The notes beneath the pieces were generated by a model that saw only the letters and a list, made by a program, of their open reading frames with translations, was not told the DNA's origin and ran no database searches. This document shows positions 26,801 through 43,576 of a stretch of DNA of 64,000 nt, in pieces. Each line of letters starts with the position of its first letter. Position 1 is the stretch's first letter. The stretch covers positions 32,001 through 96,000 of IMG/VR virus record IMGVR_UViG_3300027143_000001; one strand, 5' to 3'. Source of the DNA: a virus. A program made the translations under genes and the position numbers.

Positions 26801-29148
26801 TGGTATCTGAATGGGTCAGCTAACTGCCCTACCTTTCTTTTTACACCCTCAATGACCTCAGAGTATTTCTTGACATCACGGGCTACAGAGTCACTAAACT
26901 CAGCTGCACTAGAGTACTTGGTGTCTTCAATGTTAACACCCATCATCTTACTGAACTCCTCGTTGGACATTTCCATGCCCATGTTACGGATTGCACTCTC
27001 AAATGCTTTAACAGAGTTGGTACGCTGTGCTGCTAATACAGCATGTAGCAACGCGTTATCCTTACCGTTCTGAAATTCATACTGCTTACCTTGCGCAGCA
27101 GCCGCGGTCATTTCCTGGGCAGCTTCTGTTTGGGCAGCAAAGTTGAACATTTTGTGGCTCATGTTGTCCCCAGAGCTTAGCTGACGAAACGCTGCATTTA
27201 GTGTTTTCAAATCGTTGTCAAGTGCTTTCTCAGCTTGCTTGACGGGATCTGCAGCAGGGTCGTTTTTATACTGCATGCTGGTAGCAGCATTGCTCATCTT
27301 CTCCAGCAAACGTGATGTGGCAGCAGTGGGGATGCGTATCACCGATCCTGTCACAGCCCCCATCAAAAATGTCTTGAATCCCTGTTTGGTAAACTGCTCT
27401 TGAAATCCTTCACCAAACGCTTCTGTTAAACTCTTTTCTGCATTTTGCGCTTTGGCCATGTAGTATTCCTGCCATGACTTGGAACTCATTTCCTGCAAGT
27501 TTTCCTGCAAACCTTCTGTTACCTCCATGCGCAGCATGTCCTTGGTCAATGCTTTACCTACCTGGTATGCAGCTTCTTTCTTTCCAAAGTCCTTGGATAT
27601 CTGGCCCAGTACACCGTACGTGCCAAAGAATCCTTTCTTATAACCCTGAGTAAGTAATTTCTTAGTTGCAATATCACGTCCTTCCACAAACAGCATACGC
27701 TCTGCACCTTCTTCCAACAGGTCCTTGATTACTTTGTTGGCTGGTGTAAATCGGTTGAACAGGTTACCAAACTGTAACTTGTTGGTTACCATCAGGATAG
27801 CCAGGTTTGTATTGTAGTTAGATGCACTGGTATCTGTAGCAGCCTGCTTGAATTTTTCAAACTCTTCTTCAGGAGGTAGCAAGCCGTTGTTTCTGTCTTT
27901 ATAATCTTTGACAAGTTTGTCCAGGGTATCACCATATGACGTCACCGCTTCAAACGATGCCTCTGTTGCACTCATATTAAACTCCTGAGCCAGTCTTCTG
28001 ACACCCTGGAGTCCCATACCTGTTAACTCAAAAGCATTCTTTCCCGCCTTGGCTCCCGCTACAATCTTTTCCCCATAGCGCACGCCTGTACCTAACAAAG
28101 GTACACCACGCACAAACTGTCCTGCAAACTCACTGAAGTTCTTACTGCGCCACATACCACCAATATTGTTGGAGTACATGGTAAACGTATCAGCAATCGT
28201 ATCCTGCATGCGTGCAGAGAAAGAACGTCCTGTTGCAGCAGCCACCTCAGCAGCTTCATCTGCCTTACCGGCTACTTTAGCAGAAGCACGGATAGCATCT
28301 ACACTTTGATTGGCTTCAGTGAAACCTCTACCAATATCTGAAATAGCATCTGTAAACCTGAAGCCTGATTTGACTCCAGCCTCCACGCCTTCTTTAGCAA
28401 GCTTCTTGACTCCCATCTTGGCACCCAGCCTGGCAAAGGTGGCACCAAAGGATGCAATGCCTCCACCTGCGGTCAGTGCTGTGATAGCAGCATCTGCAGC
28501 CAGCTCGACGCCTAACGCACCAAATGTACCCAGGGCAAACCCGGAGTTGGAGATCAGGTCAGCTGCAAACTTCTTGTTGAATATACCTTCCTCATCTTCC
28601 TTGGACGCAAACACAAAGTTGCGGTTCATGTCAAGCTGGTCCTGGTAGTACTGATCAATCAGTGTCTGTTCGTCTGGGCGCAACTTGTCCCAGTCCATGG
28701 ACAATAATGCATCACCCATGCGACCATAGTCTTTCCACCAGTCCGTAAAAGTGTTACCAAATCTATAACCTGCTGAGTCAAATGCTTTGCCCATAGCAGT
28801 GCCCCATGTTTCATTATCAATGGCACGTTGGGTGTTATAGGCATCGCCAGGTGAAAATGCGTCACCTTTGAAATTTTCCTGTTGAATAAACTTATCAACC
28901 TGCTCTGCATTCCAGTATTCTGTACCAGGAGATTCAGCAGTGGTCAGGCTTTCCAAGAGACTCATCTTGGGAGGAGCAAAGTTTTCCTGCGCATACTGGT
29001 TGGCAGATTGCTCCATACTTGTTTTAAAAGAAGATGCAGGTCCTGAAGCGCCAGTTAACTGTCCGCTTTGGAATGCATCTGCTATTTGTCCAATGGTAGG
29101 TGGATCACCTCCACCTTCCTGCATATTCAAATCTAGTTCCTCCGCCAT
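23878..29148 (-). CDS. Giant virion cargo/ejection protein with putative membrane-inserting helices (1756 aa)
   Basis: Gly/Ala hydrophobic segment (GFALGTFGALGVELAADAAITALTAGGGIASFGA), TEGLQENLQ motif, acidic low-complexity C-terminal third; directly upstream of the vRNAP gene. Confidence 0.7.
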   Translation of the reverse strand: MAEELDLNMQEGGGDPPTIGQIADAFQSGQLTGASGPASSFKTSMEQSANQYAQENFAPPKMSLLESLTTAESPGTEYWNAEQVDKFIQQENFKGDAFSPGDAYNTQRAIDNETWGTAMGKAFDSAGYRFGNTFTDWWKDYGRMGDALLSMDWDKLRPDEQTLIDQYYQDQLDMNRNFVFASKEDEEGIFNKKFAADLISNSGFALGTFGALGVELAADAAITALTAGGGIASFGATFARLGAKMGVKKLAKEGVEAGVKSGFRFTDAISDIGRGFTEANQSVDAIRASAKVAGKADEAAEVAAATGRSFSARMQDTIADTFTMYSNNIGGMWRSKNFSEFAGQFVRGVPLLGTGVRYGEKIVAGAKAGKNAFELTGMGLQGVRRLAQEFNMSATEASFEAVTSYGDTLDKLVKDYKDRNNGLLPPEEEFEKFKQAATDTSASNYNTNLAILMVTNKLQFGNLFNRFTPANKVIKDLLEEGAERMLFVEGRDIATKKLLTQGYKKGFFGTYGVLGQISKDFGKKEAAYQVGKALTKDMLRMEVTEGLQENLQEMSSKSWQEYYMAKAQNAEKSLTEAFGEGFQEQFTKQGFKTFLMGAVTGSVIRIPTAATSRLLEKMSNAATSMQYKNDPAADPVKQAEKALDNDLKTLNAAFRQLSSGDNMSHKMFNFAAQTEAAQEMTAAAAQGKQYEFQNGKDNALLHAVLAAQRTNSVKAFESAIRNMGMEMSNEEFSKMMGVNIEDTKYSSAAEFSDSVARDVKKYSEVIEGVKRKVGQLADPFRYQEGSRDRYVAAVMRQVQDEAISVIAYNAIKGEMTVKRVQQLSNDIRSIAGIADSADYALRILTNPNALKAEIGNISADINILMQNMQAEGLTPEQKKDLEQQIADKKSELQELDTWTSWWSMRTTKNTVTNDQGQEMEEEIEEDDLESFIGKRKPGRKTYRTMSGERTQADGTTLTETSTVEEDDEFDMHDPEVFTNFARLMQLKNKQAGLDVDMNMTFPYQEPFQKIIDYMRLDKDAKEYMKAVDVLFNPENFEMMLYRMTDGNFKYLVMQYLDSVEELAQKQWMVAVMNLKIFGDSDSEKAERDRIREEIAAATFKSEEYRNLETIVLDPNAGVQMNKYAQEQVEKISSNLKAVMAKIYRRNISMEGYADLSDEQYENFKKDMRPSFQVMVRIANKLFDEIPLTSREQEVYDKYTTDIDEVVNDYKAAEVEATPQTETRVDDTENPAPAATPQNPTGPSPAPAPAGATPQQTEEEEEEEQPAAAAGPKYILAEDKYLGFSILDSTINDYWYDENGQSFWTKNRSEAEAKLAELNGGQAVNATPEQVEEGNEVMVQQIEEDILNGGVHIATGLQNASPEDRQAILDAIQAVSDKYPDLDIQVMQEPHRIVAKASSENSGQSSQEGQDSATDAKADTEAKYKREDFPDTQSNTRTPVTQMLLDYYAEVLGIPKFTEDLSKGTYISWLQKANPIGYAVADKLNAPKQAFDIIAEYNAELAALEQYAPVVKPEQTEPEEVDETEGVGESGAMSAAQLLRNKRQQRQQAAREESGDNFHTEQQGNGMNVVDNNGTPVNDQPLTEEQADELQQSLDRTRSELDVVYNYMTGATLTQKNEFHSKALEALARANAKRDTPFSSLEEFSKTPKGKSTLKGIATRILKKGTTQEAADAPVVVESPAGEDVPLFETTTTANAASLTFEDFVELDEKLAEFKAKANQDTQEISKFVEEDTSTKTEAPVTKTDLVNILRDIHACF

Positions 29149-29153
29149 ATCAA

Positions 29154-31817
29154 TTACTTGCCGCTTTCTGCGACTTTTCTGTTGGTTACATATTTTTCAA
29201 ACATATCCGTTACATAGGTTCCAGCACTCAGATACGAGGTAGGGTCATTTGGATTGTCAATCTTCTGAAATTTGTACAGCTTCTCGTTACGCTTTGTGCT
29301 AGGGTCAAAATACTGGAAAGTGATACCCAAGCCAAATGCACCAGAGACGTCACGCACACCAGCAGCGGTGTAATCAAAACCAACAGCGTTCATATAGCCA
29401 GGAGCTGTCACAATGGTGTTGGGATCAGCTGCAAATGCTGAGAAAGATCCTAGGTCAGTAGAGTTCACCGTATTCTTAGCCAGATACTTGTTGAAGCGTT
29501 CCAGCGGTAATGCGTTCTCACGGATGGTAGAATAAGGAAGTGTTACTGTTACAGTTTCTCCCTGCTTAAAACCTAAAGTTTTTGCAGCACTGGAATTAAT
29601 ATCAACCTTGAACTTTACCTTTACCTTCTCTCCCTGCGCATCATATGATACCGTGGCTGAATTACCCATCAGTTCTTTGATACTTACAGGAGACATGGAT
29701 GCTAACTTTTCAGGTGCAATCTTAGCACCGGTCTCTGCTACTTCTACAGAAGCAGCCGTATTTCCTGAAGCAGCGCCATCAATCAGCTGATACAATTCTG
29801 CGGAAGTAATCCCACTAAACTCAAATGTATCACCTGTTACACGCGCACGGTCATTGTATTGTGCGTCTACACGTTGGCTTAAATAAGATTGCTGAGCATC
29901 ACTTAGTCCGCTCAAATCATATACCGGTGTTCCGTCTTCTAATCTGTACAACAACTTAGCGCTTTCATATCCAGACTTAAGGTTGCCATATCCATCAGTA
30001 ATTTCTTTACTGATGTTTTTGGCATTACGTAGCAAGCTCTCGCGCTGTGTCATCAGTATGTTCATACTCGATAGCGACTTGCTGAACATATCCAACATCT
30101 TTGTGATTTCTTCTGTTTTCTTAATACCTGCATAGTCAGCAACAATCTCACGACCACGTGTATAAGTTGCTGCAGTAAACCCATCCAGCAATGATTGAGC
30201 TGCCTGCGGATTATTATTAGGATCTACAACTTTGGTATGTGTTTTCTTACCGTACTCTTTTAAGATTTCCTTGTCAGCATCTGTCAGCTGAATCCTGGTA
30301 TCACCATTGGCAATCTGCTGTACTTTATACATAATGTTATAGTACTTGCCATGTTCTGCCTCACCCACCACCAGGTTCATCAAACCGTTACCGGCTCCAA
30401 ACGTAGTGTTGAACAAATTATCGCGGTTCTTGGCCATACCATCCATCAATACATCTACCCCTGTAAAGACCTGTTGTCCAGCAGCATTACGTCCTAAGTA
30501 AGATTCAGACGGAAGATCGCCTTTACCTTGTGCAATTTTAACATCCAGAGCATACTCGCGATCCTTGTTCGCCTGCTCCTGGTTCATCTCCATGATCTTA
30601 AGCTCGCGATCCTGTTTCATCTTGGCGTAGGTTAGCTCTCTATCCTGTGCCATTTTCCATCTGGTAAGAACTACATCGTCAGACTTGATATCTACAGATG
30701 CTGTAGCATCGCTGTATCCTTTGGCCCACATCTTTGCAGTCTGGCTTTTAGCTTGTTGTGCAAAAATACCATGGATGTTTTGTGCTATAAAGTTTGCACC
30801 CTCTTCATCAAGTTTACTTGACAGAGATGATGCACCATCACGCTGGTTAATGTATGCGTCTTTTTCGTTGAGCGCATTGATGTACTTTTCTTTTACATCT
30901 GGATCCTCAATGCCATCAGGATATTTTTCTTCAATAAGCTTGATGCGTGATTCTATTTTCTCTAGCTCTGTGTCAGCTGTAGTAGTTTCTTCTGCGGTAT
31001 CAGTTTGCAATTGTTTTGCAAGCTGACCAGATACCATTTGTAACGCCTGCTCACGGGATACACCCTGAGATTGCTGAATGTTACGAATAGCGCTCTCTGC
31101 CTGCACCCAGCCTTGTTGCTGTAACTGACGGTCAAAGCGATTGCCCATCTGTGCCTGCGCCCAGTTGGTAAATGCTGCGTAAGACATCTTACCATTACCA
31201 TAAGTAACAATGTAAGGATTCTTACCATCTGCCGTAGCTACCTTAACGCCAATGTTTTGCTGCTTTGCTGCATCATTTAAGAATGTTGCAATATCATCCA
31301 TAGGCACAAACTCCTGCGGGCGAATCTTCTGAATAGACCCGTCACCACGTTTAGAGCTACGTAAATCTTCTTCTGCAAACCCAATAGCCTGACGACTAAA
31401 GTCATTATACTGCGCACGCATTTTAGGATCAGTACTGTTTTTGTACTGCTCCATACGTTGCTTTTGCTTTTGGTGAAACGAGGTAACCTGCATATCATAT
31501 GCGAGCTCCTGGTCCCTGGAGATTGGATTAAAGATTTCCTGCGCCTGCATTACGTTGGTAGGATTGGACAAGTCCACCCCTGCCAGACTCTTAATAGAGT
31601 TCTGCAGTTTCTTCATAACCTCCTGACGGTAGAGTTCGTTGGACTCACTGGTCAGGGGATTGTTAAGCGCAGAGTTATAGATACTCTTGACCATGTTAAA
31701 ACCACGGTCGTACTCCTGCTGACGCTGGCCATAGATCTCAGTCAAAAACTGGTAATCTGGCTTGTACACCTCAGCAGGTGTAATGTTGTCTGTTATACCT
31801 TGTATGAATGTTGACAT
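29154..31817 (-). CDS. Conserved crAss-like cargo/core protein (887 aa)
   Basis: Long helical ORF, translationally coupled to the upstream gene (TAATG), in the cargo cluster. Confidence 0.6.
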   Translation of the reverse strand: MSTFIQGITDNITPAEVYKPDYQFLTEIYGQRQQEYDRGFNMVKSIYNSALNNPLTSESNELYRQEVMKKLQNSIKSLAGVDLSNPTNVMQAQEIFNPISRDQELAYDMQVTSFHQKQKQRMEQYKNSTDPKMRAQYNDFSRQAIGFAEEDLRSSKRGDGSIQKIRPQEFVPMDDIATFLNDAAKQQNIGVKVATADGKNPYIVTYGNGKMSYAAFTNWAQAQMGNRFDRQLQQQGWVQAESAIRNIQQSQGVSREQALQMVSGQLAKQLQTDTAEETTTADTELEKIESRIKLIEEKYPDGIEDPDVKEKYINALNEKDAYINQRDGASSLSSKLDEEGANFIAQNIHGIFAQQAKSQTAKMWAKGYSDATASVDIKSDDVVLTRWKMAQDRELTYAKMKQDRELKIMEMNQEQANKDREYALDVKIAQGKGDLPSESYLGRNAAGQQVFTGVDVLMDGMAKNRDNLFNTTFGAGNGLMNLVVGEAEHGKYYNIMYKVQQIANGDTRIQLTDADKEILKEYGKKTHTKVVDPNNNPQAAQSLLDGFTAATYTRGREIVADYAGIKKTEEITKMLDMFSKSLSSMNILMTQRESLLRNAKNISKEITDGYGNLKSGYESAKLLYRLEDGTPVYDLSGLSDAQQSYLSQRVDAQYNDRARVTGDTFEFSGITSAELYQLIDGAASGNTAASVEVAETGAKIAPEKLASMSPVSIKELMGNSATVSYDAQGEKVKVKFKVDINSSAAKTLGFKQGETVTVTLPYSTIRENALPLERFNKYLAKNTVNSTDLGSFSAFAADPNTIVTAPGYMNAVGFDYTAAGVRDVSGAFGLGITFQYFDPSTKRNEKLYKFQKIDNPNDPTSYLSAGTYVTDMFEKYVTNRKVAESGK

Positions 31818-34800
31818 TATCTTCCTGTCTTACGCTTGATTAATATTCTGAACATCTCGTCTGGTGTAACCACCGCTCCGCCCGTAGCAAAACCTCGTAC
31901 GCCACTCATGCCTGCAATGTCATAACCTGAATAGTTTGAATACCCTGCATAGGGATCTGCATACAACGCTGCTGCAGGATTACTTCTCAGAAGTGCATTG
32001 GTGCGATTCATCTCTGCAAGTGCTGCTTGTTTTGCAGCATCTTCTCCCAGCTCCGCTTTATAAGCTTCAAATGTCTCTCTGTAGGCTTTGATACCAGCGT
32101 CACTGTTCATTGCAGCACTAACTGCATATGGATCAGCAGTACCTTTGCGTCCTGAACCTGAAGCATACCCTGTTGCATAGCCCGGTACGTATAAGTCCGC
32201 CATAGTCATGTCGCGACCTTGGCCTGAAAACTCAGCGTTATAAGAAATAGGATCAATATACACCTGTGGAGTCTTAACTTGCTCTTGCAATTTTTTGCGC
32301 TGGTAATTAGTCATACCTGCCATAAGTGCTCTCAGTTTATTTCTATCTTGCAGATTTTGCGAGTTTTCATTTTGCTGTCCTTCTGTTGCAAGATCCTTGT
32401 TATACTGATAAGCATACTTGGAGTTCATGTCACGCTCCGTGTTCTCAATCTGCGCGTTAAACTGTCCAGCCTGTGTAGACGTTTGACCATTGACAGTGTT
32501 GGTCTGTGCGTCGCTCAGTGCATTGTTTTGCAGGGTCTCACCAGTATTACCCATCATGGCTCCCAACGCTACGTTACCATCAGCGGAGTTTTGCGCCATG
32601 TTATTAAAATTGGCAGAAACACCTTGGTTGTTGGCAATGGTAGACGCATTGGTAACAGTAGTCCACTCCGGGGTAACAAAATCAACCTGTTGTTTAGCAG
32701 GTCTGAAACGCTCGTTATCGCGGGTAGATTCAAAGGCAAAGTTTACAATGTCTTGTGCCCACCACGGTCCTTGTTTTCTTCTTCCTGGAGGAACTTCTGT
32801 AGTTGTATACTCTTGACATTCTGCCTGCGCTTTCTCTAATGAGTCATAAGGAGTAACTTTTTTTCCAGTTGGAGCAACAGGTGAAGAACCTTCATCATAG
32901 TTTACAGTTTGCACAGAACGCGTACCATCTTCTGACTCTACGCAGTAATAAGCCTGCTTCTTACCTGGATCTTTTTCTTTTTCTACCTCAGGTGGCTGCC
33001 AATCTTCTTTAATTCCAAAATACTGGCGAGAAGTGTTGTTGCCATAAAAGTCATCAATATAAGAAGTACCAGTCTTGTCAGAATCCTGATCCGTTTTACT
33101 ACCAGTTGCATCAACATCAAATCCTGCGTCTTTGAACTGCTGAATATACTCAGGTTGTCTGCCCACTTTGTTTGCGGCACGATACGCAGCCTGAAATGCA
33201 ACGCGTCCCACATCGTCCATGGCCTGAATACCTAAACGATTTGCAACAGCGTTATACACTTTGTTCTTTGTGTTTACAGGATTACCTTTCTCATCATAGA
33301 TTTGACCAACAGTTCCTGTAAAAGAGTCCCAAGCTTTGGAGTTTCTAAAATCACCTTCATCACCATACACAGAACGCATCAGCAAGTTGTCTTTATTTCC
33401 TTGTAGCAAGTATTTAAGAACGTCCTCTTGCTTAAGCCCCTTAAGTTGATCCAATGTCTCCTTAGGTATTTTACCTGTGCTGTTTGGATCATTTAATATT
33501 GCCTGAAACTCTTTGAACAATGCATCTCTCAAACCCTGGTTGTTAGCACCTTGGATGATAGACTCATATGATTTGATATCCTCTGCATACTTATTCTGAT
33601 ATGTTTTAGGATCATATCCCTCAACCTCAGGCGCTTCATAGTCAACTAGCTTGTTGCCTGCGTTATAAACATAAATACCATCAGGATTGTAAACCTTTTT
33701 CTGATTGGTCTTTGTGTCTTTTACTTCTATAATCTTGCCTGTCTCAGCGTCTCGTACAATGTTTAATGTACCTTTCTTGTAGCGCTTTACTTTTCTGTTG
33801 GTTTTTGGATCAACAACCTCGTCCACAAATGTCTCCTGATTAGCCGTTCCTGCATCTTGATAGCGCGGAATCATGTAGCCTGAAGTAAACGTAGGCATTT
33901 CATATGCACCGCCTTCTTTAAAATCAGTAAGATTGCTAGGTGCTGGTGCAGATCTTCTTGCGGGTGCTGCTTGTTGAGGGCGAGATCTTTGTGTAGTGTT
34001 TTGTTGCTGAGGTTGCTGTTGTGTTTGTCTTGCAGGTGCAGGTTGGCTATCTGGATCATATAGTACAGCAGCGTTACCACTTGATGCTCTATTTGTATCA
34101 GCGGCTCCAGCTTGTTGAGACTGTTTGGGGTTTTGAAAACCTTGACTCAAATCAACTTTTGTAAACTGTCTGTCACGGTCTGCATAAATCAGATCACTTT
34201 GAAAAAGGTTTTCAGTCTGTGATCCATAAATCTCATTGTATCCTGTGATTTTTCCGTTTTGGTCATAGATAGGGGTTACCTTTCTAGCTTTCAGTGAAGG
34301 TGATGAATGAGGATGGTTTTGAAATTTTCTTGCTGCATATGGCCACTCAACGCGGTACATGCTATCACCTTTAAAAAACAAATCACCAGTGTTTAGTTTT
34401 TTACCGTTTACGTCAATGCCGTAATTGTACTTGTACCAGTCGTCACCAATAAAGGGTTCATTGCTTTCTCCAATGTAGTAATGAAGGTTCTGATCACCAT
34501 ACATGCGATCATAAGGAACACTGGTGTTGTAAGATTTATTGAAGCTGTGCTCATCAATGTAAAACTTTTGTCCGCTTTCTGTATTAAGAAACACATATTG
34601 ATTGGGACTAAAAGTGTTAATCTGACTTTCATTGGCCATGTAACGGTGAGGCTTGCCATTGATGTAGACAATTGTAGCAGGAGTAAGTCCAATCTGATCT
34701 CCTGTTGGTCTAACCTTTTTTACATCACCTGCACTCTGGTATTTATGTAATCCACCCCATCTGCCTTGTGGCATTTCTTGAGGCATCATTTCTTGTGACT

Positions 34801-35419
34801 CTTGCTGCTGTGGCTGTTGTACCATCTCTGGTGTAACACCCAGCACTGAAGCAGCCATCTCTGCAATAGCAGGAATACCATCAGGAAAACCTTTCATGGA
34901 TTCCTGAATAAGCGCCAGTGTGCTCAGCTTCTGCAAGTTGTTCTTCAACATCTCAGACGCGCTGCGCTTGGTAATGTTATCTGCCTCAGGATTTTTCAGG
35001 TCAGCAACGTATGCATTGATCTGATATTTCTTAGCAATTTCAGCAGGCGTGTATCCTCCCTTTCTGGGAGAAAGACCAAACACCTTTTGCAACACTTCCT
35101 CATCCTTAATGCGAAGCTTGCGAGTGTTGGAATATATGAATGAACCTGCAGGTACATCAACGGGTGTACCACCCTTGCTGTGAGGTTTGCCGGTAAAGGT
35201 AAACAGTTCCAGGAAACCATCTTTGTTGGTATCCCCTACAACAACTTCACCGCGCTCCACTTCAATGGATGCTTCTTCGCGGGGTACTGGACCCATTGTT
35301 GTTTTGACGTCGTCTTCTGCATTACCTCCCATACCCGCGTTGCGGTAACGGCTGTCATAGAAGCTATAGTCTACTTGGTCACCCAGCTTAGGGGCGGTTT
35401 TGATACGGATTCTTTGCAT
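31817..35419 (-). CDS. crAss-like cargo protein (1200 aa)
   Basis: N-terminal IEVERGEVV...GKPHSKGGTPV...SFIYSN motif typical of crAss cargo proteins; Gln/Pro-rich linkers; internal xxxGG motifs. Confidence 0.65.
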   Translation of the reverse strand: MQRIRIKTAPKLGDQVDYSFYDSRYRNAGMGGNAEDDVKTTMGPVPREEASIEVERGEVVVGDTNKDGFLELFTFTGKPHSKGGTPVDVPAGSFIYSNTRKLRIKDEEVLQKVFGLSPRKGGYTPAEIAKKYQINAYVADLKNPEADNITKRSASEMLKNNLQKLSTLALIQESMKGFPDGIPAIAEMAASVLGVTPEMVQQPQQQESQEMMPQEMPQGRWGGLHKYQSAGDVKKVRPTGDQIGLTPATIVYINGKPHRYMANESQINTFSPNQYVFLNTESGQKFYIDEHSFNKSYNTSVPYDRMYGDQNLHYYIGESNEPFIGDDWYKYNYGIDVNGKKLNTGDLFFKGDSMYRVEWPYAARKFQNHPHSSPSLKARKVTPIYDQNGKITGYNEIYGSQTENLFQSDLIYADRDRQFTKVDLSQGFQNPKQSQQAGAADTNRASSGNAAVLYDPDSQPAPARQTQQQPQQQNTTQRSRPQQAAPARRSAPAPSNLTDFKEGGAYEMPTFTSGYMIPRYQDAGTANQETFVDEVVDPKTNRKVKRYKKGTLNIVRDAETGKIIEVKDTKTNQKKVYNPDGIYVYNAGNKLVDYEAPEVEGYDPKTYQNKYAEDIKSYESIIQGANNQGLRDALFKEFQAILNDPNSTGKIPKETLDQLKGLKQEDVLKYLLQGNKDNLLMRSVYGDEGDFRNSKAWDSFTGTVGQIYDEKGNPVNTKNKVYNAVANRLGIQAMDDVGRVAFQAAYRAANKVGRQPEYIQQFKDAGFDVDATGSKTDQDSDKTGTSYIDDFYGNNTSRQYFGIKEDWQPPEVEKEKDPGKKQAYYCVESEDGTRSVQTVNYDEGSSPVAPTGKKVTPYDSLEKAQAECQEYTTTEVPPGRRKQGPWWAQDIVNFAFESTRDNERFRPAKQQVDFVTPEWTTVTNASTIANNQGVSANFNNMAQNSADGNVALGAMMGNTGETLQNNALSDAQTNTVNGQTSTQAGQFNAQIENTERDMNSKYAYQYNKDLATEGQQNENSQNLQDRNKLRALMAGMTNYQRKKLQEQVKTPQVYIDPISYNAEFSGQGRDMTMADLYVPGYATGYASGSGRKGTADPYAVSAAMNSDAGIKAYRETFEAYKAELGEDAAKQAALAEMNRTNALLRSNPAAALYADPYAGYSNYSGYDIAGMSGVRGFATGGAVVTPDEMFRILIKRKTGR

Positions 35420-35458
35420 AAACTTTAGAAGTTTAAAAGGGTAGGAAGGCTAAACATC

Positions 35459-35478
35459 TCACATTTAGAATTTACAAA
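35459..35478 (-). promoter_or_regulatory. Putative phage late-promoter motif, copy 3 (TTTGTAAATTCTAAATGTGA)
   Basis: Near-identical to the copies at 52039-52058 and 59138-59157; all three are intergenic and upstream of minus-strand starts. Confidence 0.55.
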
Positions 35479-35522
35479 TTTAATCGCAAAAGTCCTACTC
35501 TTGTAGATGTTTTTTGTAGAGG

Positions 35523-37601
35523 TTATAAAAATTCAATCTCACCACCGGCAGCCAGGATTGCTGCAATCTCTTCTGCAGAGACTTCATAGGTTCCACCCTG
35601 GCGGTATCTTTTTGTACCTCCGTAGCGTGCTCCTACTTGTGAGAAGTCTTGCATGGGTGTACCCATTACTAGTTGTGAATTAGGACCTACAGCCATGTTG
35701 GTACGCTCGTTACCAAATGCATTCTTGGGGTTGTAGGCATTGTACATGGAGTCTGTGTTGTTGGTTTCACGCAACAGTTGGTCGTAGCTTTTGTTTCTGC
35801 GCTGGTCGCGTTTTTCCGCCCAGTCTGCAAAGTAACCCAAACCGACAATAGCATTGTTACCTGCCACAAATCCAGCTTCGTCACCCTGATATTTTGTTTG
35901 TGATGTTTGCTGCATTTTAACGCCAGGATTTTCAACAGTACCCAAACCGCTTCCTACTGCAACATCACCCAACACACCTTCAAGTTGTTGTTGTCCAAGC
36001 ATTGCATTGTACATACCAGATCCTGGACCTGTGCCTTTAACAGGCGTGCCTGTACCTATACTGTTTGCAGGTGTATTCTGCGCAGGTTGGTTAGCAGTTT
36101 CTTCTGTTTGACCAGTTTCACTTCTCCACATCTCCATAAGCTTGGCTTGGTTTGCGCTGTTCTGCATTACGTCTTGACGCATTGCATTCTGTGCAAACCA
36201 CTGGTTAAATGGAACAGCACCCCCTGGTTGAAAGCGCATCATACCACCTTGTCTTTTCTGCTGCAAATTTCCTCTGTCCATGTAGTCTTGAAAGCCTGCA
36301 GGCATTTGAGGCATTACAGGTGCAGCACTTGCAGCAGGATTTGGAGTATACATGCTCTCCATATCCATCATGTTACCCATACCTGATCCTTTAGACCCCC
36401 TATGAGGAAGCGGCTGAGATGCGGGAGGTGTAGTAGTGGATGTCTGAGAAGTTGTAGTAGAAGATCCGCTACCCATGTATCCAGATTGAGCACCAGCAAA
36501 ATCATCATACATATTGCCAGCTTCTAATGTAGCACCCATCCCTGATCCACCAGACTTTGTCATCCTGGTTTTTGGATCCGGATTCATATCCTGTTGTGCA
36601 GGAGGCGTTGCAGGTGTAGGATTGGCTTTGTCATAACGTGCTTTCAATACATCCTGAGTGTTACCATACTCGCCAGTACCTGTATTCATAAGCTTGCTGT
36701 CGTGCTTGTCTTTAGCAAACATTTTCTCATAGCCAAGTGTTGCCCCTGACAATCCTGATGCAAGTCCAATCATACCTTTTAAGAATGAACCTTTTGGTAA
36801 GTATTGAGCAACACCGCGAGGATCTGTCAGAGTTGTAGCTGTAGCCAAACCACGATTCCATTTACTATTGTCAAGGTTCTCCAGCCTGTGACGACTTACT
36901 CTGTCTACCTGGTAGTCACCCTCTTGGTACATATCGCTATGTGGACCACTATAGTAATCTCCTCCGTCATCATACATGGACAACTCACCACCCTCTTCCC
37001 AGGTACCAAAGCGCTTATGCCAGTACAGTGGTGAGAATGGATCTTTTGCTTTTGCAGAATCTCTGCCACCCATGCGGTCCCAGAAACGCTCGCGACGGTC
37101 TTCACTACCATGTTGAGTGTAGTCTTTCATACCGTCATATCCACCATGCACCACTTTGTATTGATCTCCTTTTTTAGCAAGCACCATCCACTTCTTACCA
37201 TCACTTGTGGATTCTTTCTTTACACCTACTTTGGTGAAACCCATGTTCTTGTAGCGTTCAGGAATTCCTCCGCCATCCTCATAAGATTCCACTTCTTCTG
37301 GCAAATCTTCTCCAAGATATCCTCCAAAGCGTTTGCTAAAGTCCATTGACATGCCTCCTTGTTCCATAAAAGGAACTGTGTACACGCCTCCAAAATTATA
37401 CATACCGCCACACTCATAGCAGATATTACCACCCATCTCAGCTTTTTTCCAGCCGCCACCACGTTCCTTATACCACTTGGCAGCATAACCGTTCGCATAT
37501 GCAGAAGGATAAACATCATACTTAGCTTTAGCAGCAGCTTTTGCTCTGCTCCAAAGTTCAGGGTTGGTTGGGGTGTTGCCACCGTTTTTCATGTATTCCA
37601 T
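35523..37601 (-). CDS. Modular low-complexity cargo protein (692 aa) with DUF5872-N-like and DUF5754-like modules
   Basis: PTNPELWSRAK...YPSAYANG...YKERGGGW module; KKWMVL...GYDGMKDYTQH...RRERF...SPLYW module; more than 10 xxxGG motifs. Confidence 0.6.
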   Translation of the reverse strand: MEYMKNGGNTPTNPELWSRAKAAAKAKYDVYPSAYANGYAAKWYKERGGGWKKAEMGGNICYECGGMYNFGGVYTVPFMEQGGMSMDFSKRFGGYLGEDLPEEVESYEDGGGIPERYKNMGFTKVGVKKESTSDGKKWMVLAKKGDQYKVVHGGYDGMKDYTQHGSEDRRERFWDRMGGRDSAKAKDPFSPLYWHKRFGTWEEGGELSMYDDGGDYYSGPHSDMYQEGDYQVDRVSRHRLENLDNSKWNRGLATATTLTDPRGVAQYLPKGSFLKGMIGLASGLSGATLGYEKMFAKDKHDSKLMNTGTGEYGNTQDVLKARYDKANPTPATPPAQQDMNPDPKTRMTKSGGSGMGATLEAGNMYDDFAGAQSGYMGSGSSTTTSQTSTTTPPASQPLPHRGSKGSGMGNMMDMESMYTPNPAASAAPVMPQMPAGFQDYMDRGNLQQKRQGGMMRFQPGGAVPFNQWFAQNAMRQDVMQNSANQAKLMEMWRSETGQTEETANQPAQNTPANSIGTGTPVKGTGPGSGMYNAMLGQQQLEGVLGDVAVGSGLGTVENPGVKMQQTSQTKYQGDEAGFVAGNNAIVGLGYFADWAEKRDQRRNKSYDQLLRETNNTDSMYNAYNPKNAFGNERTNMAVGPNSQLVMGTPMQDFSQVGARYGGTKRYRQGGTYEVSAEEIAAILAAGGEIEFL

Positions 37602-37609
37602 AGGTAAGC

Positions 37610-40600
37610 TTATATTTGTCCACCATCTTCCTTACGTCTGTGCTGATAAGGAATGCGCTGGCTGGATGTCTTTGTTCTTTTAAATTTTTCTTTCTCTGAA
37701 GCACTAAGTTCTGACGACGTTTTAGGTGTGTCATCAGATACACGTTTAGAGGGTCTGCATGCAGGATATCCTTTACGCTTTTCACCTTCCTGTCTTCCGC
37801 AAGGTTTACCGGTTTTTACATCAACCCACTTCTCTGCAAACCAGCGGTCAAGTCCGCCATGCTCTCCTCCCCCTACAAATTTACTCAATGCTCCGCCAAA
37901 AGCAAAACCTTCTGGTGTAGATTCTTGTTCATCCATCATCATACCTGCACCTACAGCTGGTATTGCAGCAGGTAACATGCGAATCAACTTGCGTTTATCT
38001 TCTATAGAAGTGTTGCCTTTGAAGAACCTGTTGAGGTATTGGTCTTTGATCATATAGTCTACCATATCATCTGAAGGATTCTGCAATGCCTGAATGGCTT
38101 GCTCCATACTTATACCTGATTCCTGAGCATATCTCTTTGCAAGGTTCATGCGCGCCACCATTAACTCAGAGTGAAGTTCTTTTGGTGAGGCCGCCCATGT
38201 TTTAACTTTGTCTTTATTTGCTTTCCTATATAATGGAAGTTCAACATCCTCAATCTTTTTAATCTTGTCATCATACTCATCTACAATTTGTATTGCAAAA
38301 TCATAATGATCATTTGTAGAAACTTTTCCGGCAGCCACGTCGTCATTGAGCTGCTGAAGCTTTGCATTCTTTTCATCACCTAAGTCAATAAGTCTTTGAC
38401 GTATTTGCTGATAACCAACATCATCTCGCCACAGCTTTGGTTCAACCATTGCATCTGCAAACATTTTACCTGTAGGTGTAGATGTGTTTGCAAAAAAGTA
38501 AGGAGTGATGGTTGAGTCATAATTTGTAATAGCGCTTGACCAGGGAAAAACTGGATCCCCAAATCTTTGAAAAGTGTGACCTGTTTCGTGTGCACTTGTT
38601 GCAGCAACACCTTTTGGATCAACATGATAAAATCCCTGATTTCTTAAGGTAATGTTATAATCGTTATTGTTTACACCAAGTATCTTACCCCTATTCTCTG
38701 TAATGTAATCTTTAGCAGTATCAACAATTTTAGAGTCTGCGGCAAGATCTGAAGAACGACTGCTTACAAGCCTTGAAGGATTAGTGTTCAAAATATTGTT
38801 AGAGTCCATAACTGAGCTATTGGTATCAAACGTCAGTCGGAATCTATTAACCGTTGCTGGATCAAGTGCGGTAGCGCGGTCAACAACTTGACCTCTGATT
38901 TCTCCGTCAGGGCCATAAATCCACTGCTTGACAAAGTCCTCACCTTCTTTAAGTGCCGCGTCTTGTTTGGCCCATACCTTTTGCTTTTGTGATTTTGTCA
39001 TAGGAAAGATCTCAAAGAATGGACGCTCTCCTTCTACCACTTCAGCCAACCCTTGACCAAGTCCATATAAATGCTCATTAACGGCAGGAGTCTTTTTTTC
39101 TCTGACAAACTTAGCAAGCTTACCATCTCCTTTGGGTTGCCACACACTGGCATCATATGCAAAGCTTCTAAATTTACTAGGTAAATTACCAAAGATACTT
39201 GCAGAAGCAGGAGCTGCTGCTTGTGACATTTGTGCTACATCTTGCGAAGCATTCACCATCCTGCCTATGTTTCCTGCACGTGTAGCATCGTCTATAATTC
39301 CTGCACCTACTAGGTTTAGTGGATCCGATCCTGCTAAGATTAATTCTTCTAGCGCCTGTGTACTGCCGGGTTGAACATAAGATTCCAGGCTACCATAAGT
39401 CATAGGCTTTGTACTTCTGCCAGACACAGCATTTGCCATATCCCCACTGAACGCTCCTCTGACAAGATTGCTGGTATACCCTAATGGTGCAAACACTCCC
39501 AGTCGTGACGCATTCTTTGCTTCTTCAGGACTCAAGTCTTCATCATTGTAGTCAATACCAAATAGATTAGCCATACCCTGGCGGAACTGTGTACCCATGT
39601 CTGGGTTCAAATTGTATCTAGCCTGGGATTCTCCAATAATGCTAAGCTGCTCAGGTGTAAATGTCTTTAACCACTCTTGGCGGTTTCTATCACCTTGAGG
39701 GTTTTGTGCCAAGATTTGTTCTGCTACTTTAGTACGTGCATAATCATATGCCCTTTTTTTAGAGCGCTTGTCGCTGTATGCATCAAAGCCCACCGCACGG
39801 GCAAATCCTGTGTCTTCTTTACCCATCCACTCTTTGGCAAACTTGTCCATATCACCTGCGTATTGGCCACGATCTGACATGACCTCTACAGGTTTTCTAT
39901 AAGTGAATACAGGGGCGTTGTTTTTAGTGTCCCACGATGTGTAACCACTATCAAACAAAAAATCAAAACGTCTGTCATTGGCACGATCGTAATTAAACTT
40001 ACGCTGCCCTTCTGCAGGCTTTACATATTTTTCAATGAATGCTTCTTTTTCTTCTACTGTCAGCTCTCTTCCTCTGCGCTGCTCCTCACGATTAAGCATA
40101 TCAGACCACTGTTGTGCGCCTTGTGTGTATGCCTTCCAACCAGCTTCATATTCTGCACGCTGGTCAGCATTATTCATAGCATCATAGTTTGTAACTGGAG
40201 CATCAACGCTTTTGCGCCTGGGCCCACCTTTGACAAACTTCTGCAATTTTGAATTACTGTAGGTTACACCACCGTCTCGCTGAACTTCATGAAAAGTAAA
40301 CCACCAACCAAAAGGCGAGTTCTTATCCTTCTTACCCATGTCACGGTGCAATAGTTCAGCGTACGTGTGCCCCGTAGTGCCATGATCGCGTATAGGATAT
40401 TCATCCAGGTCATCAGGATTCATGTGCCTATAATGATCCATTGTTCGCTTCATCTCAGGATCATCTTTATACTTATCATGCATGGCTTTAAAAGTCTGCT
40501 CGCCAAAGTATCCATCGGCTTCTACACCTAAAAAGTTCTGGATGTTTTTAATCTTTTCAGGAGTAAGATGATAATATGATGTCATGGCAATACCAGGCTC

Positions 40601-41404
40601 ATACAATCTGTGAGTTTTATACTCTACAGTCCCTGGAGTCTTGTACGTGTCTTCGCCATACCTAAGTCTTTCCAATAAAACCTCAAGATTCTGTCCTACA
40701 TTGCTTAAGCCAGGGTCTTTGACATGCGCCATTTCTGCAATAAGATTGGATATAAACTCCTCACGAGGCTCTTTACCAACTCCAATTTCATTAAAAAAAG
40801 AGTTGTAATGAGCTCTGTTTTCTTGGTCTGCAAATGCGCCATCAAAGTTAATTTTATCAACACCTTTACCTCTGTTTACCAACTTAGCAAGCTCAGGATA
40901 AACATTAAGAAGGTCTACATACATTTTTGCATTGGGATGAGACATATCAATGTTTACAGGATCTGTATCTTTTCTGGTGTTGTACCTGTCACTATTCCAC
41001 ATAAACTCTTGTTCACCCGCTGCTCTAGCTTTGGCAAATGCTTCATCTCTAGTGGGATATTGAGAGTAGTCATCTAGTCCCCAGTTCTTAGGATTTAACG
41101 CTGCCCCTACAGTTTTAAGCATGCCTGGTTTTTTAATAGCCCTGGTTTTAATTTCTAAGCCAGGCATTGAGGTGCCGGATTCCCATATGTTATCCTGCAC
41201 ATCAAACAGTGCTAAGTCTTGAGGAGGAACAACATGCTCTCCTTGTTCATTAACATAATATCTTTGGTCTTTGAACCTTGGGTCCAGGAATACACTCTCC
41301 CCTGTGGGAAGTTTATACTCTCTCCACCCATTCTCTCTAGGACCTCCTGTTACATACTTGCGCAAGTTTCTTTTGCCAAAGTGTGAATTGTAATCATTAT
41401 TCAT
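37610..41404 (-). CDS. Modular cargo polyprotein (1264 aa): PG-binding-like, zincin-like and DUF5872-C-like modules
   Basis: EAFAKARAAGEQEFMW module; IQNFLGVEADGYFGEQT (PG_binding_1-like); AHETGH...SPKELHS zincin; C-terminal GLDRWFAEKWVDVKTGKPCGR...YPACRPSKRVS. Confidence 0.6.
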   Translation of the reverse strand: MNNDYNSHFGKRNLRKYVTGGPRENGWREYKLPTGESVFLDPRFKDQRYYVNEQGEHVVPPQDLALFDVQDNIWESGTSMPGLEIKTRAIKKPGMLKTVGAALNPKNWGLDDYSQYPTRDEAFAKARAAGEQEFMWNSDRYNTRKDTDPVNIDMSHPNAKMYVDLLNVYPELAKLVNRGKGVDKINFDGAFADQENRAHYNSFFNEIGVGKEPREEFISNLIAEMAHVKDPGLSNVGQNLEVLLERLRYGEDTYKTPGTVEYKTHRLYEPGIAMTSYYHLTPEKIKNIQNFLGVEADGYFGEQTFKAMHDKYKDDPEMKRTMDHYRHMNPDDLDEYPIRDHGTTGHTYAELLHRDMGKKDKNSPFGWWFTFHEVQRDGGVTYSNSKLQKFVKGGPRRKSVDAPVTNYDAMNNADQRAEYEAGWKAYTQGAQQWSDMLNREEQRRGRELTVEEKEAFIEKYVKPAEGQRKFNYDRANDRRFDFLFDSGYTSWDTKNNAPVFTYRKPVEVMSDRGQYAGDMDKFAKEWMGKEDTGFARAVGFDAYSDKRSKKRAYDYARTKVAEQILAQNPQGDRNRQEWLKTFTPEQLSIIGESQARYNLNPDMGTQFRQGMANLFGIDYNDEDLSPEEAKNASRLGVFAPLGYTSNLVRGAFSGDMANAVSGRSTKPMTYGSLESYVQPGSTQALEELILAGSDPLNLVGAGIIDDATRAGNIGRMVNASQDVAQMSQAAAPASASIFGNLPSKFRSFAYDASVWQPKGDGKLAKFVREKKTPAVNEHLYGLGQGLAEVVEGERPFFEIFPMTKSQKQKVWAKQDAALKEGEDFVKQWIYGPDGEIRGQVVDRATALDPATVNRFRLTFDTNSSVMDSNNILNTNPSRLVSSRSSDLAADSKIVDTAKDYITENRGKILGVNNNDYNITLRNQGFYHVDPKGVAATSAHETGHTFQRFGDPVFPWSSAITNYDSTITPYFFANTSTPTGKMFADAMVEPKLWRDDVGYQQIRQRLIDLGDEKNAKLQQLNDDVAAGKVSTNDHYDFAIQIVDEYDDKIKKIEDVELPLYRKANKDKVKTWAASPKELHSELMVARMNLAKRYAQESGISMEQAIQALQNPSDDMVDYMIKDQYLNRFFKGNTSIEDKRKLIRMLPAAIPAVGAGMMMDEQESTPEGFAFGGALSKFVGGGEHGGLDRWFAEKWVDVKTGKPCGRQEGEKRKGYPACRPSKRVSDDTPKTSSELSASEKEKFKRTKTSSQRIPYQHRRKEDGGQI

Positions 41405-41422
41405 GAACGGCAGCGTTAACAG

Positions 41423-43576
41423 TTATAAACCTTTGATAAATTTTTGAAGGATAGCGTTCTCATAAGACTGACCGCCGTTACGTTTAATTTCCATAGTACC
41501 TGTAGTGGGGTAGTGCTGAAACATGTTAGCAAAAGTACGCACGTTTCTTACGTACTCGTTGTTTGTGTTATTTGGATTCTGCACAATAGCTTCCTCAGGA
41601 CTGATACCCTCATCAATTGCCTTAATAACAGTTTTCTTATCACCTCTTCTCAGACGACCAGGCATGCTGTACAGATAAGGTAAGAAGTCTAAGTAATTGC
41701 TTTCATCAAGCGCAGCAGTCTCACCCTTGGCAGCCAGCTTTCTCAACTGCGGTAGGTTCTGTGCGTTTGCAATCATAGCTGCTACAAATGCTTTCTCAGG
41801 ATCAGTGTCAACACTCTCAGGTGTAATTCCGTAAAGCTTCATATCTGCATCACTCAAGTTCTTAAGCTTCACTTGCGTTAGCCCTCTACTGTACTCTGTC
41901 TTAGGATTAATGTTATTGCCTTTGGCAAGACCATTTGACATCCATCTTGCTATAAGATTTTGAGTACTCGCTGCTGTACTACGGCCAAAATCAGATTCAG
42001 AAAATCCTCCAGCCTTGGTTCCAAATCCAGTCTCCTGTCCATAGATTCCAAACGTGTTGGACACAATACCGTTATACTCACGATTTGAAATGTTGTAGCG
42101 CTTCATGAACTCTTTCTTAAAATTCTCATCGTTCACTTTGTTCAGAATCTGATTAAAACCTGCCTTCTCAGACAGCGCTTTATAATCTACATCATATGCC
42201 GTTTGAACTTTAAGATCTTTGTCTACAAACGGCATATCAAAACTGCGCGTTGTCAAGAGTCTTGACGCTTCCTGAAATCCAGGATCCGTATTCTGCATCA
42301 TAGTTGGCGTACTTACACCAACGGTCTCGCCATTCATAGTAATCCAGTTCTTACCTTTTTCTGCAAACATGCCTGGTGAATATGTTTGCCAGCGACTCTC
42401 AGCACCTTTAGAACGGGTAAAGAACTGTGGGTCTTGCTTCTTTATCTTTTGGTCCAGCCAGTTGCGCAACTTTGTATTTTTGTTGTCATTACCAAAATCG
42501 CGTGTGATTAACTGAATGTGTTCATTAGATGCAGGTGCCATAATAGGATCACCATTGTCATCTGTAAGATACCGCCAAATCGTATCATCAGGGTTATCTG
42601 AATCGGGATCATCAATCCATTCCCCTGATGCGTCTAAATGTTTGTCTGAAGAAGGATTAACTGTATACTCTTGTTCAAACATTGTACCCGTTCCACCATT
42701 CATAAAAAGAGTAAAACTGATTGTACCGTCTGAGTTTTTGAAAATAGAACCAGGTTTTACCAATCCTGCATGATGGGGATGACCTTGATCAAACGCAAAC
42801 TGTACAATGTCACCACCTTTAATATCATTAGTATCATAGTTCAGTTTCCAGTTGGGCACTTCACCAGCTTTTACAGCATCTTGAAATGCGGAATTTGAAT
42901 AGTAGTGAAGGTCTTCACCGACATTAGCATCATTAATTGTATAACATACGCCTGATATACAATACATTGGTGATCCATAACCGTTTGGGTCATTGTAAGC
43001 AGCTTGCTTAACACTCTCAGGCATGTAGTCTGTATTTGCAACCTCAAAATTTTGTGCACCTAGCCTATTAATTGCGTTTAATATACCCTGCTCATAATCG
43101 TACCTTGGACCCTTGTTGATGTTATCCTGTGTAAGGTTTCTGCGATTTACCAAGTCTTGGTCTACCCACTGTGTTCCAGGAGCTGGTTGCGCGTCAATAC
43201 CGTAGCGGTCTGCGTCGGCAGGTATTTGAACAATAGGTCTTGCCGCCTCAGCCTTAACGGGTCCTTCAGCTTCTAACCCACCTTGTGCTTTAGGTAAAAA
43301 TTTATACAGACCACCATAACGCATCTCATACTCATCTACGTATTGTGCACCAGGAAAATGGACATTGGTCTCATCATAAGGCTGTAGCTCTGCCTGAATA
43401 CCGTTATCACTCACAGCCTTGATGCGATGAGGTGTAGGGTTATACAAAGTGTCGCTAGGAATCCTATAATTAGTTCCAGGAGCAGGTGCTCCATTTAAGA
43501 ATCCTTGGTTGCTAACAACAGGAGTAGTCTTTTGTCTCTGCTCCTGTATGAATCTTAGTAGTACTTCTTTTTTCAT
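41423..43576 (-). CDS. Virion-associated peptidoglycan hydrolase: CHAP/NlpC-P60-like plus lysozyme-like domain (717 aa)
   Basis: YCISGV...GGDIVQF...HHAGLV (Cys/His dyad) and GIYGQETGFG...SRGLTQVK (transglycosylase-type E...GLxQ). Confidence 0.6.
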   Translation of the reverse strand: MKKEVLLRFIQEQRQKTTPVVSNQGFLNGAPAPGTNYRIPSDTLYNPTPHRIKAVSDNGIQAELQPYDETNVHFPGAQYVDEYEMRYGGLYKFLPKAQGGLEAEGPVKAEAARPIVQIPADADRYGIDAQPAPGTQWVDQDLVNRRNLTQDNINKGPRYDYEQGILNAINRLGAQNFEVANTDYMPESVKQAAYNDPNGYGSPMYCISGVCYTINDANVGEDLHYYSNSAFQDAVKAGEVPNWKLNYDTNDIKGGDIVQFAFDQGHPHHAGLVKPGSIFKNSDGTISFTLFMNGGTGTMFEQEYTVNPSSDKHLDASGEWIDDPDSDNPDDTIWRYLTDDNGDPIMAPASNEHIQLITRDFGNDNKNTKLRNWLDQKIKKQDPQFFTRSKGAESRWQTYSPGMFAEKGKNWITMNGETVGVSTPTMMQNTDPGFQEASRLLTTRSFDMPFVDKDLKVQTAYDVDYKALSEKAGFNQILNKVNDENFKKEFMKRYNISNREYNGIVSNTFGIYGQETGFGTKAGGFSESDFGRSTAASTQNLIARWMSNGLAKGNNINPKTEYSRGLTQVKLKNLSDADMKLYGITPESVDTDPEKAFVAAMIANAQNLPQLRKLAAKGETAALDESNYLDFLPYLYSMPGRLRRGDKKTVIKAIDEGISPEEAIVQNPNNTNNEYVRNVRTFANMFQHYPTTGTMEIKRNGGQSYENAILQKFIKGL

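Follow-up and report, generated by a model that had tools for sequence, protein, structure and literature searches.

A Gly-Gly junction peptide at the module borders of cargo proteins in a crAss-like phage, a candidate processing site

How a phage might load and release a long series of effector proteins is the question raised by a 64,000-nucleotide stretch of viral DNA (IMG/VR record IMGVR_UViG_3300027143_000001, positions 32,001 to 96,000), hereafter called the window. Four consecutive genes in this window encode cargo proteins of 717, 1264, 692 and 1200 amino acids (aa) that carry many copies of a short peptide ending in Gly-Gly. To our knowledge, no loading or processing signal has been described for the several megadaltons of cargo protein found in crAss-like phages. 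The recurring element, termed here a seam, is a junction peptide of the form [M/Y/F/W]-x-x-G-G, sometimes x-x-A-G, and it is often doubled, with the two copies 3-10 residues apart. Nearly every module joint carries such a conserved peptide. The reading we favour, with a probability of roughly 0.4, is that an endopeptidase recognises the seam and would cut after Gly-Gly, either during head maturation or after ejection.

The four genes are arranged as follows, with positions given in the numbering of the window.

41423..43576, minus strand: 717-aa protein, the head piece of a cargo unit; an open reading frame (ORF) whose N-terminus, M..LLRFIQ, is equivalent to ILMKFI in relatives
37610..41404, minus strand: 1264-aa protein, the middle piece; contains an exchangeable N-module (residues 22-375), a core of 770 aa and the DUF5872 C-half
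35523..37601, minus strand: 692-aa protein, the tail piece; the N-half of DUF5872, DUF5754, three more folded blocks and a C-terminal tail (Pfam; AlphaFold2, AF2)
31817..35419, minus strand: 1200-aa protein, a separate conserved cargo protein; three conserved seam doublets and several x-x-A-G variants (alignment with the related loci L001 and L002)

All 28 pentapeptides listed in the first-pass annotation are present at the places it gave. That annotation had allowed any residue at the first position, in which form the motif is equivalent to a bare Gly-Gly and does not rise above background when measured against composition-preserving shuffles (1000 for the window), there being 40 copies in the four cargo proteins compared with 33.5 after shuffling (P 0.12). 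The tightened form [FYW]xxGG is enriched, with 14 copies compared with 3.4, a count reached by 0 of 1000 shuffles, and [KR][FY]xxGG occurs 5 times compared with 0.3. The proposal that copies come as doublets is likewise supported (13 GG..GG doublets versus 3.8). A suggested comparison of cargo with other proteins gave the expected contrast, since [FYW]xxGG is flat in the rest of the proteome (14 versus 12.4) of the 109-kb viral record that contains the window. Of the 27 copies that the annotation gave for the four genes, 16 agree with [MFYW]xxGG and two are x-x-A-G variants, while most of the remainder are first halves of doublets that have an aromatic residue at P3 or no bulky residue (residues are numbered back from P1, the second glycine). 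Taken alone, the 717-aa protein is not enriched in the motif; conservation is confined to its two terminal doublets, and the FMNGG within its core probably arose by chance. The same appears true of the copy reported at the start of the 1756-aa protein, MQEGG, which is MQEGA in L001 and is absent in L002.

The tightened pattern was defined after inspection of the window data and was then tried on sequences outside its definition. There are more than 1410 homologues of the 692-aa protein, and in the 119 listed among them [FYW]xxGG exceeds shuffles by 5.7x, [MIL]xxGG by 4.4x and doublets by 6.1x, whereas [FYW]xGG (0.38x) and [MIL]xGG (0.74x) are depleted. In the cargo ORFs of 36 syntenic IMG/VR loci there are 605 motifs versus 111 expected. 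Across 1291 distinct seams, P5 is M (.42), Y (.36), F (.13) or W (.09), P4 is A, K, Q or E, P2-P1 is G-G, and P2' and P3' are often Pro. At P1', E is favoured 3.3x and R falls to 0.07x; residues of the N-degron type make up 14% of this position compared with a background of 27%, which is a weak trend in which Tyr is not avoided.

Seams are kept at orthologous positions in L001 and L002. Their codons vary freely, which argues that selection acts on the peptide rather than on the DNA. A recombination signal at the DNA level is ruled out by the lack of codon conservation within the motif, and internal translation initiation at the motif Met is ruled out by the Tyr, Phe and Trp residues that share its position. 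The peptide is apparently undescribed. A full-text literature search that paired Crassvirales or cargo with Gly-Gly, diglycine or polyprotein gave no relevant paper in its 12 top matches, and DUF5754 and DUF5872 appear in the searched literature only in papers on the annotation of giant viruses and polinton-like viruses.

Module borders, gene boundaries and the C-terminal tail

The individual seam sites of the four proteins are the following.

43277..43324, minus strand: doublet MRYGG..KAQGG, 717-aa residues 85-100; kept in L001 and in the relatives P0125 and P0126
41426..41485, minus strand: C-terminal doublet remnant KRNGG..LQKFIKGL-stop of the 717-aa protein; the gene ends inside the doublet
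41342..41356, minus strand: N-terminal seam YVTGG of the 1264-aa protein; F[LV]xGG in P0122-P0124 despite a different following module
40223..40282, minus strand: doublet QRDGG..FVKGG, 1264-aa residues 375-394; marks the edge of the exchanged N-module, and relatives are fused at this point
37853..37906, minus strand: cluster FAFGG..FVGGG..HGG before the DUF5872 C-half; conserved in 7 of 7 homologues
37619..37633, minus strand: KEDGG, 2 residues before the 1264-aa stop; first half of a doublet split by the gene boundary
37578..37592, minus strand: MKNGG, 692-aa residues 4-8; second half of the KEDGG doublet
37269..37442, minus strand: micro-array of six seams in 58 residues, 692-aa residues 54-111; includes a conserved C-x-x-C-G-G
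36960..37001, minus strand: doublet WEEGG..YDDGG between DUF5754 and the next block (alignment, AF2)
36219..36257, minus strand: doublet KRQGG..FQPGG of the 692-aa protein (alignment, AF2)
35592..35630, minus strand: doublet ARYGG..YRQGG ahead of the tail of the 692-aa protein (alignment)
34727..34765, minus strand: doublet GRWGG..YQSAG of the 1200-aa protein; a doublet in all three orthologues
33848..33922, minus strand: doublet FKEGG..YQDAG of the 1200-aa protein (alignment of orthologues)
31877..31924, minus strand: doublet YDIAG..FATGG, then a short tail (AVVTPDEMFRIL..), of the 1200-aa protein (alignment of orthologues)

The first-pass annotation had described the cargo proteins as mosaics delimited by the motif, and this description holds in that unrelated modules are exchanged at the motif and genes are split or fused there. 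The most general evidence comes from 12,876 internal BLAST block ends, 30.5% of which have a seam no more than 5 residues away, compared with 11.7% of random positions, the median distance being 12 residues rather than 31. Individual alignments with L001 and L002 agree with this, since modules are inserted, lost or replaced exactly between seams, as had been suggested for related genomes. Thus, residues 22-375 of the 1264-aa protein, its N-module, are exchanged in L001 for an unrelated module that is flanked by the same two conserved seams, and L002 carries about 480 extra residues of modules at the micro-array site of the 692-aa protein (residues 54-111).

An AF2 model of the 692-aa protein, built from a 49-sequence alignment and having a mean predicted local distance difference test score (pLDDT) of 61.7, places confident blocks at residues 8-55, 111-201, 215-336, 461-500, 561-614 and 672-692. 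The block edges at 7|8, 110|111, 201|202, 214|215, 460|461 and 671|672 each fall on a seam Gly-Gly; the linkers that hold the seams are modelled with low confidence. Confidence in the DUF5754 block extends as far as the Trp of WEEGG, its last residue, and the micro-array region has a pLDDT of about 30-36. Within this micro-array, a seam-framed C-[YM]-E-C-G-G element (37386-37418, minus strand) is conserved in L001, L002 and many other family members, and may represent a mini-module or one half of a zinc knuckle.

Gene boundaries also coincide with these peptides. In L002, a 1191-aa ORF holds the 1264-type C-terminus and the 692-type protein in one chain (..DEGG-(11 aa)-MKEGG-NVPTNPELW), at the point where in the window the stop of one gene and the start of the next lie inside a single doublet (..KEDGG-QI stop / MEY-MKNGG..). 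In P0125 and P0126, a 717-type head is fused to the 1264 core at ..K-FVKGG-PKRKS, and both continue as a single ORF through the position at which the 717-aa protein ends; the start of P0127 lies 5 residues past this ..K-FVKGG seam. The KRNGG..LQKFIKGL with which the 717-aa protein ends is patterned like the internal QRDGG..LQKFVKGG of the 1264-aa protein. A unit of one to three ORFs follows the muzzle gene in 19 of the 22 syntenic loci listed, with a conserved head (..ILMKFI..) and with the tail on the last ORF only. In the other three, L015 has a tail-like ending (..GADIEILD) outside the search pattern, and L025 and L037 have no detected tail. By comparison with these relatives, the 717-, 1264- and 692-aa genes are one cargo unit that exists elsewhere as a single gene and is found here in three pieces. 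The four genes of the first-pass annotation are therefore one three-piece unit plus one further cargo protein, that of 1200 aa.

The two kinds of terminus created by such events look different. Where a stop codon takes the place of a junction, the final Gly-Gly has decayed and L-x-K-[FY] is kept (..LQKFIKGL, ..LHKFLNY, ..WLDKYK). At N-termini the seam is retained with nothing upstream of it, even before a different module (YVTGG / FLKGG). There is also a second recurrent C-terminal ending, GGQxxWL[DEN]xY, often located on the upstream pieces of split units (L008, L020, L022 and L024; P0096 and P0098), and this resembles a doublet that stops short of the second Gly-Gly.

The 692-aa protein ends in a further conserved element.

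35526..35591, minus strand: conserved 22-residue tail TYEVS..EI..ILAAGGEIEFL of the 692-aa protein (family alignment)

In 103 of 120 family members the motif falls among the final 40 residues, and most of these 103, examined by eye, have a seam followed by about 22 conserved residues of the form ..EY.VS..EI..ILA.GGEIEFL or its ..GYEFEII variant. When the last 45 residues were searched against 1.84 billion representatives, 40 clusters were matched, and in 38 of them the match lies at or within one residue of the C-terminus of proteins ranging from 41 to 2242 residues. By this distribution the tail is a portable terminal tag.

Cargo genes and their setting

The gene content identifies the window as a virion block from a marine crAss-like phage. 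The 109-kb record from which it is taken has an estimated completeness of about 85%, and the virion genes of the window are all on the minus strand. Its ring proteins match CrAss_Ring_1 (E 5.6e-11) and CrAss_Ring_2 (E 8.4e-18) of Pfam, and a 1910-aa protein resembles gp44 of phage crAss001, the muzzle (BLASTP E 1.8e-6), as well as phrog_37948. Downstream of this muzzle gene the ORFs encode, in order, 717, 1264, 692, 1200, 887, 1756, 4198 and 2012 aa. Paralogous ring proteins and a muzzle upstream of giant cargo and RNA polymerase genes are the arrangement expected of a Crassvirales-type virion module. In the crAss-like layout, genes after the muzzle encode proteins that are stored in the particle and ejected (PMC10172136). 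By analogy with crAss001 and from gene position only, flanked as it is by the muzzle gene and those of the virion RNA polymerase, the cargo studied here is presumed to be delivered to the host with the DNA.

No close cultured relative of this phage was found. A tblastn search of cultured phages returned DUF5872 and DUF5754 fragments only and no seam-bearing phage, and the cargo genes of the cultured crAss-like Flavobacterium phage FpV4 carry no seams.

The domain content proposed earlier is confirmed for the DUF5872 halves (Pfam) and is less certain elsewhere. The 717-aa protein has 50% identity to a 707-aa ORF of L001, and no Pfam or PDB match was found for it. Its core is probably a peptidoglycan hydrolase (CHAP, SLT or lysozyme-like), which should be taken as a lead only. 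In the 1264-aa protein, residues 1181-1247 correspond to DUF5872 positions 52-111, and PG_binding_1 is a weak match (E 0.0011) that falls below the Pfam cut-off. An HETxH sequence in its core is invariant in 7 homologues, and its AF2 model (pLDDT 44) is unusable for judging the fold. A PDB fold search with the model of the 692-aa protein gave nothing at E <= 0.001, and PDB sequence searches with the 717-, 1264- and 1200-aa proteins gave no matches. Additional domains in relatives include SET, glucosaminidase, YkuD and tail-lysozyme.

The DUF5872 halves are found in reversed order across the boundary between the 1264- and 692-aa genes, with the C-half at 37619-37860 and the N-half at 37440-37592 (minus strand). 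In L002, the C-half, a seam doublet and the N-half follow one another within one chain. DUF5872 is therefore made up of two modules that can be separated.

In most of the 22 syntenic loci listed, the 1200-type ORF comes after the tailed ORF. Its N-terminus in the window is MQRIRIK..PK.GD (35377-35419, minus strand), and the basic form M-[QHK]-K-I-R-I-K-K-x-P-K-x-G-D is strongly conserved, including in distant relatives (L001, L002 and most listed loci). This segment is a candidate for a functional terminus of its own. The conserved 887-aa protein encoded next (29154-31817, minus strand) lacks Gly-Gly altogether (0 copies, where its glycine content would predict 3.9; P about 0.02).

Cleavage, docking or hinge

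Chance has a negligible probability as the source of these motifs. A motif that reflects only a Gly-rich composition would agree with the background frequency of bare Gly-Gly and with the probable chance origin of MQEGG (1756-aa protein) and FMNGG (717-aa core). However, it is refuted by a four- to ten-fold enrichment over shuffles, by conservation at orthologous sites and by the coincidence of seams with block ends.

Cleavage is favoured because a cutting site fits both the decay of Gly-Gly at C-termini and its persistence at N-termini. Perhaps a doublet represents the C-flank of one cassette beside the N-flank of the next, such that the predicted cut would set modules such as the wall hydrolase, DUF5754 and the DUF5872 halves free as individual proteins. 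One loaded and threaded chain would then act as many proteins. The peptidase would stand outside known Gly-Gly families, and it would be neither the 116-aa HEIFH protein described below nor the HETGH block of the 1264-aa protein. Position preferences that run from P5 to P3' in the 1291 seams are what an extended binding cleft would produce.

Another possibility is that the seam is a docking or loading tag, which would bind a pocket on the capsid interior, the portal or the tail barrel in the manner of encapsulin cargo-loading peptides. In this version, many copies would provide avidity and load the chain into the procapsid, and the C-terminal tail would serve as the primary anchor. Such a function is compatible with motifs that lie, like binding motifs, in low-pLDDT linkers, with tandem copies and micro-arrays that have no intervening modules, with the extended P5-P3' preferences, with a portable tail on proteins of 41-2242 residues, and with the binding of crAss001 gp45 to tail barrel and portal via short segments. 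However, the largest cargo proteins (4198, 2012, 1756 and 887 aa) have no seams, yet they also need to be loaded, and the upstream pieces of split units have no tail. Docking is further disfavoured because Gly-Gly decays at natural C-termini, a loss that would destroy the tag, and we regard it as an unlikely explanation. A passive junction is also improbable in our estimation. Here, Gly-Gly would be a hinge and the bulky residue would cap the preceding module, and the uncut chain would thread the tail channel; the seam would insulate the folding of neighbours and mark where recombination is tolerated. The exact placement of Gly-Gly at fold edges, with the WEEGG Trp ending the DUF5754 block in the AF2 model, its dispensability at C-termini, the single gp45 chain that spans tail and capsid with G427-G428 intact, and the failure to find a protease all suit this idea. 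In contrast, a hinge needs no conserved P5 and no P4 or P1'-P3' preferences across unrelated modules, and the three-gene split indicates that continuity of the chain is not required. A mere hinge is also disfavoured because seams persist at N-termini, where there is nothing to hinge.

Several observations nevertheless weigh against cleavage. A cleavage product has been observed for no seam-bearing protein, cutting throughout the micro-array, with its six seams in 58 residues, would leave tiny peptides only, and the informative termini events are few and phylogenetically linked. The specificity of the seam, with its bulky P5 and non-hydrophobic P4, matches no known Gly-Gly peptidase. In crAss001 virions, G427-G428 is uncut in the modelled gp45 fragment 425-552 (gp45 not being a detectable homologue), the giant cargo proteins run at full length, and the papers on this phage report no protease and no cleavage. 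In the 109-kb record, at its completeness of about 85%, there is no Peptidase_C5 or Peptidase_C48 candidate at E <= 10, and Peptidase_C39 and the prohead-type families Peptidase_S78 and CLP_protease are absent. A Pfam scan of ten head and tail genes revealed no peptidase, and no candidate peptidase gene that co-occurs with seams was found among the 20-kb loci compared.

Three zincin-like candidates, namely HEAFH in the virion RNA polymerase, HETGH in the 1264-aa protein and HEIFH in a 116-aa protein, had been put forward as the enzymes that act on the motif, and the last two were followed across loci. One is encoded by a small gene in the virion block.

49309-49659, minus strand: 116-aa protein with an invariant ..AHEIFHL.. 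followed by D.ES, between ring protein 1 and the muzzle gene

This protein is 90% conserved in L001 and 44% in L002, and its gene occupies the same position between ring 1 and muzzle in 20 of 36 syntenic loci. In the other 16 the gene is missing, and the gap from ring 1 to muzzle, about 0 nucleotides, leaves no room for it. FpV4 does not carry it either. Seam counts are 320 versus 56.5 expected in loci with the gene and 285 versus 54.8 in loci without it; being equally seam-rich, the latter lead us to reject the 116-aa protein as a required seam protease. The HETGH block of the 1264-aa protein is rejected as well, since it occurs in only 3 of 79 loci. Thus, both zincin candidates fail the co-occurrence comparison. 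For the HETGH block, no Pfam or PDB match was found. The 116-aa protein may be a minimal zincin that is not linked to seams. Weak relatives of it (E 4e-3) adjoin DNA methylase genes in 42-kb Flavobacterium phages of the FpV9 type.

If the cleavage reading is extended beyond this locus, many marine crAss-like phages might deliver their effectors as a true polyprotein of 1-3 threaded chains, cut by an unrecognised phage or host peptidase that is driven by P5 and is unlike adenain, PLpro or C39. The seam and the 22-residue tail would then form a 'load, inject, release' code into which any small domain could be plugged. We offer this broader proposal tentatively and with somewhat less confidence than cleavage at the seam. 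The junction peptide and the portable tail are in any case common to well over a thousand proteins. Exact neo-termini that mass spectrometry could look for are predicted by the seams, which also set the limits of dozens of uncharacterised mini-domains, among them DUF5754 and the DUF5872 halves, as units in their own right. If seams are cut, a peptidase with a specificity not yet recognised would be implied; should seams and tail prove transplantable, they might load foreign proteins into phage particles; and if seams are only hinges, they would still explain the extreme mosaicism of the cargo genes.

Comparison with known systems

Proteolysis at Gly-Gly is established for the clan CE systems of DNA viruses. 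Adenovirus adenain has the consensus (M/I/L)-X-G-G|X, the pS273R protease of African swine fever virus (ASFV) cuts pp220 and pp62, and the poxvirus I7 protease cuts at A-G|X. The cargo system shares with these the use of Gly-Gly or Ala-Gly, preceded by a hydrophobic residue, to bound virion proteins, the polyprotein logic and the DNA virus setting. The first-pass annotation had drawn this analogy to adenovirus and ASFV, which fails at the level of enzyme and site. The bulky residue is at P5 rather than at adenain's P4, P4 here being A, K, Q or E, and no C5 or C48 peptidase was detected; adenain-type [MIL]-x-G-G, depleted in the homologues, is not enriched in the window cargo (2 versus 4.0). 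Double-glycine leaders processed by C39 peptidases have hydrophobic residues at -4, -7 and -12, whereas position -4 is A, K, Q or E in seams and Peptidase_C39 is lacking. Among phages, the internal proteins of T4 carry a capsid-targeting sequence that is cut by gp21, and the inner-body proteins of phiKZ are cut by gp175. These are also packaged and ejected proteins with a short targeting or processing peptide, but their sites end in Glu and occur once per protein, and their prohead protease is known, whereas none was found here.

A structural reference is gp45 of crAss001 (cargo protein C1; PDB 7QOG, 7QOI, 7QOJ, 7QOL and 8CKB; Pfam crAss_CARG1, PF25725; PMC10172136). Like the cargo unit, its gene is located directly after the muzzle gene. 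The protein is rich in Gly-Gly (21 versus 13.1) and has A-[FY]-G-G beside the fragments 214-245 and 425-552 that were resolved by cryo-electron microscopy (cryo-EM), but its count of the strict motif (3 versus 1.4) is not significant. It binds the tail barrel and the portal through short segments, and one chain has been modelled in both tail and capsid (PMC10172136). No match to PF25725, the profile of the portal-binding domain, was found at E <= 10 in the 109-kb record, and BLASTP comparison of gp45 and gp46 with the 717-, 1264-, 692-, 1200-, 887- and 1756-aa proteins gave no similarity (gp45 E > 3). The peptide-mass fingerprint of crAss001 gel bands 1-9 was redone on the published matrix-assisted laser desorption/ionization (MALDI) peak lists (PMC6235969 supplement), and it recovered gp47+gp50, gp49, the portal and fibre proteins at their expected sizes. 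In the bands of at least about 77 kDa, gp45 (L006 7988-10516; 90.9 kDa, 12 copies by cryo-EM) did not rise above chance, and the portal, also present in 12 copies, was identified.

The polyvalent proteins of phages and conjugative elements offer a conceptual parallel. These multidomain proteins have been proposed to be processed, with embedded zincin-like peptidases as the agents (Iyer, Burroughs, Anand, de Souza, Aravind 2017, PMC5512222). A junction motif is not mentioned in that paper (neither 'linker' nor 'glycine' occurs in its text; PMC5512222), whereas the cargo proteins considered here have a conserved junction peptide and no universal embedded peptidase. The two systems have in common that effector and wall-breaching domains are strung together, that the proteins are predicted to travel with the DNA and that processing has been proposed (PMC5512222). 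At least two unrelated domains per polypeptide, by which polyvalent proteins are recognized, are also found in this cargo, in the form of the DUF5872 halves, DUF5754 and the six AF2 blocks of the 692-aa protein.

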